From NCBI RefSeq assembly GCF_044324875.1, contig NZ_CP172185.1: a stretch of DNA of 64,000 nt; one strand, written 5' to 3'. The position numbers and the translations under genes are program-made. The stretch is from Escherichia coli. GTDB lineage: Bacteria; Pseudomonadota; Gammaproteobacteria; Enterobacterales; Enterobacteriaceae. Below, one piece after another: positions 6,851 through 7,237 of this stretch. The first letter of the stretch is position 1, and every line of letters starts with the position of its first letter. The notes under the pieces were generated by a model. That model was not told the DNA's origin, did no database searches, and worked only from the letters and a program-made list of their open reading frames with translations.

Positions 6851-7237
6851 TTAACGATACTTCTGGTGATAGGCGTTGCGGGTCGTTTTCAGTTGCTCTG
6901 CGGCAGCCTGCGCTTCTTTTACTTTACCTTCATTTGCCAGCTTCAGCGCGTCGTCAATCTGACCGACCAGAATATCGAAACCGTGGCGGAAGTCTTTCAT
7001 TTCCGGGCTGTCCGGTGATTTGCCTTCGAGCTTCGGCGGCGTCGCTTTTTGCGCATCCAGCGCTGCGGCGCGCATCTTCGTTAACGCGTCTTTGACTTGC
7101 GCTGCGTTATCGGCTTTTTCGACCACTTTTAAATTGTCGTTGAGGGTTTCCATATTGTCTTCCAGATCAGCGGCAAACGACGCCGAACTGAATACCAATG
7201 AGGAGACTGCAAGAATAGCTAACAGGCTTTTACGCAT
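6851..7237 (-). CDS. cybC: Soluble cytochrome b562 precursor (full length, with signal peptide)
   Basis: 128-aa [25 protein letters not shown]|[19 protein letters not shown]... ; haem-ligand Met and His present; convergent with nrdG. Confidence 0.93.

Follow-up and report, generated by a model that had tools for sequence, protein, structure and literature searches.

The window analyzed here, a stretch of 64,000 nucleotides of Escherichia coli DNA, carries cybC, the gene for soluble cytochrome b562, in the conserved gene order nrdD, nrdG, cybC, pmbA/tldE, and yjgA (Table 1). The open reading frame (ORF) list gives at this site a 128-codon frame that runs from ATG to TAA, as expected from the original prediction of a full-length 128-aa precursor with a signal peptide, and no frameshift or premature stop was seen within it. 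The translated frame matches Pfam family PF07361 (Cytochrom_B562) at profile positions 1–102 of 102 with 117.2 bits against a curated cut-off of 30 (E = 5.8e-34), and this full-length match places the product in that family. Moreover, the exact 128-aa sequence occurs on at least 1000 public contigs, where it is titled cytochrome b562 [Escherichia coli], and strain NRZ14408 has the identical protein under the accession WP_001232246.1, which is also annotated in PCN061. The window cybC is a real gene and no chance ORF. Two shadow ORFs on the plus strand (6803–7018 and 7020–7382) were set aside as frames that overlap the well-supported cybC. Elsewhere in the window, the Rfam hits at gathering threshold (Table 1) are all expected for this region of E. 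coli.

Table 1. Coordinates of cybC, its neighbors and flanking elements, and other features of the window
Feature	Position in window	Strand	Basis or remark
nrdD	4046–6184	+	
nrdG	6342–6806	+	stop codon at 6804–6806
Inverted repeat TTCCCTGTT...AACAGGGAA, inner CCTG/CAGG pairs	6811–6842	.	read from sequence
cybC, complete 128-codon precursor of soluble cytochrome b562	6851–7237	-	ORF list, Pfam, PDB matches, exact protein in public contigs
cybC stop codon TAA	6851–6853	-	
Mature 106-residue heme-binding domain (predicted)	6854–7171	-	PDB alignment and translation
Signal peptide, residues 1–22, cleavage before ADLEDN	7172–7237	-	mature PDB chains 1apc/256b begin at query residue 23
26 bp GTGAGCAATGCGTAAAAGCCTGTTAG, deleted in K-12, present in window	7219–7244	-	window–MG1655 alignment
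Shine-Dalgarno-like AGGAAG, ending 6 nt upstream of ATG	7244–7249	-	read from sequence; putative function
ERIC/IRU-like imperfect palindrome, ~139 bp, between pmbA and cybC, upstream of cybC start	7258–7396	.	
pmbA/tldE	7421–8773	-	
yjgA	8867–9418	+	
Segment absent from MG1655, between ytfE and cycA	35379–38249		
Two tandem ORFs in the ytfE–cycA insertion	35422–36906, 36940–38331	-	both weak DKNYY-family (PF13644) matches, otherwise uncharacterized
IS200/IS605-family element absent from MG1655, inside ytfA TetR-family pseudogene	41517–43263		
TnpB/InsQ of the IS200/IS605 element	41572–42768	-	OrfB_IS605 and Cas12f1-like TNB domains
Y1 transposase ORF of the IS200/IS605 element, divergent from tnpB	42776–43390	+	
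Rfam hits at gathering threshold: two naRNA4 (CssrE, REP-derived), STnc450, ES239 sRNA, RpsF leader	9467–9544, 15701–15779, 25391–25448, 30020–30142, 46135–46219		

Residues 1–128 of the window CybC align with the 128-residue PDB chain 9tmp_A, and residues 23–128 align with residues 1–106 of the mature chains 1apc, 256b, and 1qpu. Because the mature chains begin at CybC residue 23, residues 1–22 are taken to be the signal peptide, which appears to be of the Sec type, with a basic n-region, a hydrophobic core, and an SFA/A site, and the mature N-terminus that follows reads ADLEDNM. Precursor residues M29 and H124, equivalent to Met7 and His102 of the mature protein, are both present in the alignment to the PDB chains; from established knowledge of cytochrome b562 structures, we take these two residues to be the axial heme ligands. 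The counterpart from E. coli B (PDB 256B, 1QPU, and 9TMP; parent of the BRIL fusion module) is encoded at the same locus as a 128-aa precursor with a 106-aa mature form, and is identical to the window protein at 126 of 128 residues, including the whole signal peptide as well as Met7 and His102. The two differences are V39 and G72 in the window versus I39 and D72 in the B allele (precursor V39I and G72D; mature I17V and D50G). Both fall at known polymorphic sites of natural isolates, among which CybC positions 35, 39, 46, 54, 72, 76, and 122 vary (PMC6561927). So close a match to a protein of solved structure points to a four-helix-bundle fold that would hold heme b non-covalently.

The orthologous locus of K-12 MG1655 (NC_000913.3) likewise lies between tldE/pmbA and nrdG and has the same ERIC-like element upstream, but its cybC (b4236, 4459488–4459855) is annotated as a pseudogene. 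In the alignment of the two loci there is a single 26-bp gap in MG1655, and the missing bases comprise the spacer after the Shine-Dalgarno-like motif, the ATG, and the next 16 bases, that is, codons 2–6 and the first base of codon 7. No microhomology is present at the ends of the deletion. The K-12-type junction, in which AAAGGAA is directly joined to CTATTCTTGC, does not occur in the window, which keeps the 26 bp. Outside the deletion, the nucleotide identity of the cybC locus is ~96%, and the K-12 copy differs from the window in having D72, S122, and K125 (G72D, A122S, and Q125K relative to the window); the in-frame K-12 remnant begins with ILAVSS. The original prediction described the cybC of MG1655 as a truncated pseudogene, and both the b4236 annotation and the 26-bp deletion agree with this, while the identical intact cybC in MG1655 that had been named beforehand as the decisive counter-evidence was not seen in the alignment. 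The window holds the ancestral intact form of cybC.

Regarding database labels, PGAP gives the remnant of K-12 cybC as an intact CDS of 121 aa named "cytochrome b562", for example in DH1 (WP_023649327.1), where the CDS start is an ATT codon, whereas the same remnant is a pseudogene in the curated MG1655 record. The gene label in the cybC search likewise carries no pseudogene mark. Because these labels differ, annotation alone would have misled the K-12 comparison.

The complete E. coli genomes reveal how much an intact cybC can say about strain background. A 36-bp query centered on the K-12 deletion junction, able to seed only across that junction, found it in 355 of 5,426 genomes. Sixty of these 355 carriers, taken at even steps down the ranking, were considered by strain name and all 60 are K-12 laboratory derivatives, including MG1655, BW25113, DH5alpha, DH1, C600, J53, MC4100, TG1, S17-1, and NCM3722. 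With a 52-bp query across the start region, the intact form was found in at least 4,614 of the 5,426 genomes, a minimum since megablast seeds only on an exact 28-mer. In addition, the 90–95% identity band of the cybC search, where the K-12 derivatives sit, contains 361 genomes, and roughly 93% of sequenced E. coli are without the K-12 deletion. Across the species cybC is normally intact, and the loss of the 26 bp is a derived lesion specific to the K-12 lineage; therefore, the intact gene argues only against K-12 and identifies no particular lineage. The proposal that a full-length cybC indicates a non-MG1655 background is accordingly supported.

The regions on both sides of cybC also vary among strains. 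On the 3′ side, an inverted repeat lies between the convergent stop codons of nrdG and cybC and, judged by its sequence, is probably a transcript-end (3′) hairpin shared by the two genes. The terminator scan made no call at this hairpin, which is without a T-run, and the only two terminator-like sites that it reported in 6700–7500 are on the plus strand, neither of them placed to end cybC. The promoter scan of the same interval found no promoter-like (sigma-70-like) site, including between pmbA and cybC, and Rfam at gathering threshold gave nothing within or beside cybC. Transcription of cybC may come from read-through from pmbA or from a promoter that is off consensus.

On the 5′ side, the ~139-bp palindrome is predicted to fold as RNA into a long imperfect hairpin (−70.3 kcal/mol, z −6.8), and it is a dispersed repeat, found at a median of 3 and up to 6 places per genome. 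It thereby has the attributes by which ERIC/IRU elements are recognized, namely an imperfect palindrome of ~127 bp that is intergenic and present in several copies per genome. Compared with the two ERIC-PCR primer sequences, which were the only ERIC sequences used, its center matches ERIC2 at 15/18 and ERIC1R at 8/9, the two matches being adjacent and in the same orientation. This palindrome in the 5′ region of cybC is probably of the ERIC/IRU type. PCN061, which has the same CybC protein accession as the window allele, lacks it here, as does the genome class with 81% coverage, and the element thus represents a presence/absence polymorphism. No literature linking ERIC repeats to cybC or pmbA was found.

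Many other E. coli strains have a relBE-type toxin-antitoxin pair (ParE_toxin/RelB Pfam) between nrdG and cybC. NRZ14408, whose cybC is identical to that of the window in protein and 100% identical in DNA across the gene, differs from the window by such an insertion, while the nrdG–cybC gap of the window is only a 44-bp spacer with the hairpin and without the relBE pair. With the ERIC-like element, the relBE cassette, and the K-12 deletion, the flanks of cybC constitute a small hot spot of structural variation. One might go further and suppose that the 5′ palindrome at this hot spot influences the expression of cybC or the stability of its transcript in a way that differs from lineage to lineage, but we regard this as improbable.

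A related concern is that the window ORF, although intact, could be functionally impaired, either by G72 in place of D72 or by the ERIC-like element upstream, so that the gene would be cryptic as in K-12. The lack of a recognizable sigma-70-like promoter and the separation of cybC from upstream sequence by the 139-bp palindrome are what one would expect in that case. However, the exact window protein is very common among public contigs, positions 39 and 72 are sites of common natural polymorphism, and the heme ligands and signal peptide are unchanged. Furthermore, an element occupies the same site in both MG1655, where the alignment is gapless across it, and E. coli B, which has the same cybC–pmbA spacing, and E. 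coli B expresses cybC strongly. An impaired allele is therefore very unlikely.

The E. coli B lineage was represented by B95.deltaA, which we take to be a B strain of BL21(DE3) descent. Its CybC is identical to PDB 9tmp_A at 128/128 residues, consistent with the earlier statement that the protein was characterized from E. coli B. The window itself could be imagined to come from this lineage (BL21/REL606), the background tied to the characterized protein, because the window and B both have an intact cybC. Nevertheless, the two sequences are only 97.4% identical over 56.5 kb, and B95.deltaA has no match for window 17694–18327 (chpSB region) or about 27991–29212 (ytfI region), lacks both of the insertions that the window carries (Table 1), and has a different gene block in the rplI–ytfB interval, so that its structural differences from the window outnumber those of MG1655. 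An origin in E. coli B is ruled out by this level of identity, the structural differences, and the two amino-acid differences in CybC. Like K-12, the window contains the chpSB toxin-antitoxin pair (17689–18284) and ytfI (about 27991–29212).

Over its length, the window is collinear with MG1655 in reverse orientation, from 4466705 down to 4407168, in four blocks of 97.2–98.0% identity (weighted 97.4% over 59.4 kb). A window of K-12 origin would be collinear at >99.9% identity with no extra insertions, and what is found instead is 97.4% identity and two insertions absent from MG1655, one between ytfE and cycA and the other an IS200/IS605-family element. These are the accessory insert and the IS to which the original prediction had appealed in proposing a non-K-12 origin, and that proposal is supported at the scale of the whole window. 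The 2.9-kb insertion at 35379–38249 is also absent from B and is common to strain 2021CK-01784 and others. The Y1 transposase of the IS200/IS605 element is called partial by PGAP in the matching genome.

Among the 5,426 complete RefSeq E. coli genomes, the best match to the window reaches 98.1–98.2% for 1–25 kb, 99.1% for 25–50 kb, and 99.2% for 50–64 kb, and the best-matching strains differ between these segments. The per-kb profiles are mosaic: strain 2021CK-01784, for example, carries both insertions and is nearly the same as the window across 35–49 kb, but differs from it at 4–42 positions per kb across 25–35 kb. Closer relatives are found among drafts: GCA_044684685.1, GCA_002467655.1, and GCA_050232155.1, together with the Logan run ERR3328720, have 2 mismatches (99.99%) over window 8834–32613 or the part of it that they cover. 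The lineage-matching draft loci end at window 8834, short of cybC, and identity in the cybC region within this draft lineage is to be expected. These drafts were reached through exact matches to the TamB protein, which is present in 165 collection blocks, whereas the exact-protein matches of NrdD and TreC are too widely shared to single out a lineage. The lineage of the window looks under-represented among finished genomes and recombinationally mosaic. Such local mosaicism might invite the idea that the window is a K-12 derivative in which a short tract of foreign DNA (from transduction or engineering, for example) restored or replaced cybC, which would make the intact gene uninformative on background, but this is ruled out by a divergence from MG1655 that is spread uniformly over the whole window (97.2–98.0% in each collinear block, 59.4 kb), by the two insertions absent from K-12, and by a first 25 kb of which no part is closer to K-12 than to other lineages. 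The window derives from a natural lineage of E. coli outside both K-12 and B.

Overall, the reading that we prefer, with a probability of roughly 95%, is that the window carries a wild-type, functional cybC allele of a natural non-K-12, non-B E. coli, and that the K-12 deletion is derived and silencing. By its 126/128 identity to the structurally and biochemically characterized B allele, the product would be a small four-helix-bundle protein of the periplasm. Its 22-residue Sec signal peptide would direct export and be removed by cleavage after SFA and before ADLEDN. The mature protein would bind one non-covalent heme b via Met7 and His102, and would serve as a reversible one-electron carrier in the periplasm. 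In the K-12 laboratory lineage, the derived 26-bp deletion takes out the start codon and the first signal-peptide codons and thereby silences the gene.

Soluble cytochrome b562 has been described as expressed by non-K-12 strains and "cryptic in K-12 strains" (PMC4361602), and cybC appears in a list of genes with high expression in REL606 compared with MG1655 (PMC3446290). In addition, native cytochrome b562 co-purifies from BL21-type strains, "typical B-lineage" expression strains (PDB 9tmp; PMC13041623); that paper refers to its sources as canonical expression strains, citing Trower 1993 for the lost expression in K strains as well as Itagaki and Hager 1966. Both the cryptic state of CybC in K-12 and its expression in B are already known and amount to a textbook strain difference. 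The physiological role of cytochrome b562 is still unknown (PMC6561927).

Finally, it should be noted that the present result confirms a known strain difference and in itself matters little, beyond assigning the window to a natural lineage of E. coli distinct from both K-12 and B. What it adds is that the 26-bp deletion junction, given its distribution among complete genomes and the strain names of its sampled carriers, is a clean marker of the K-12 lineage.
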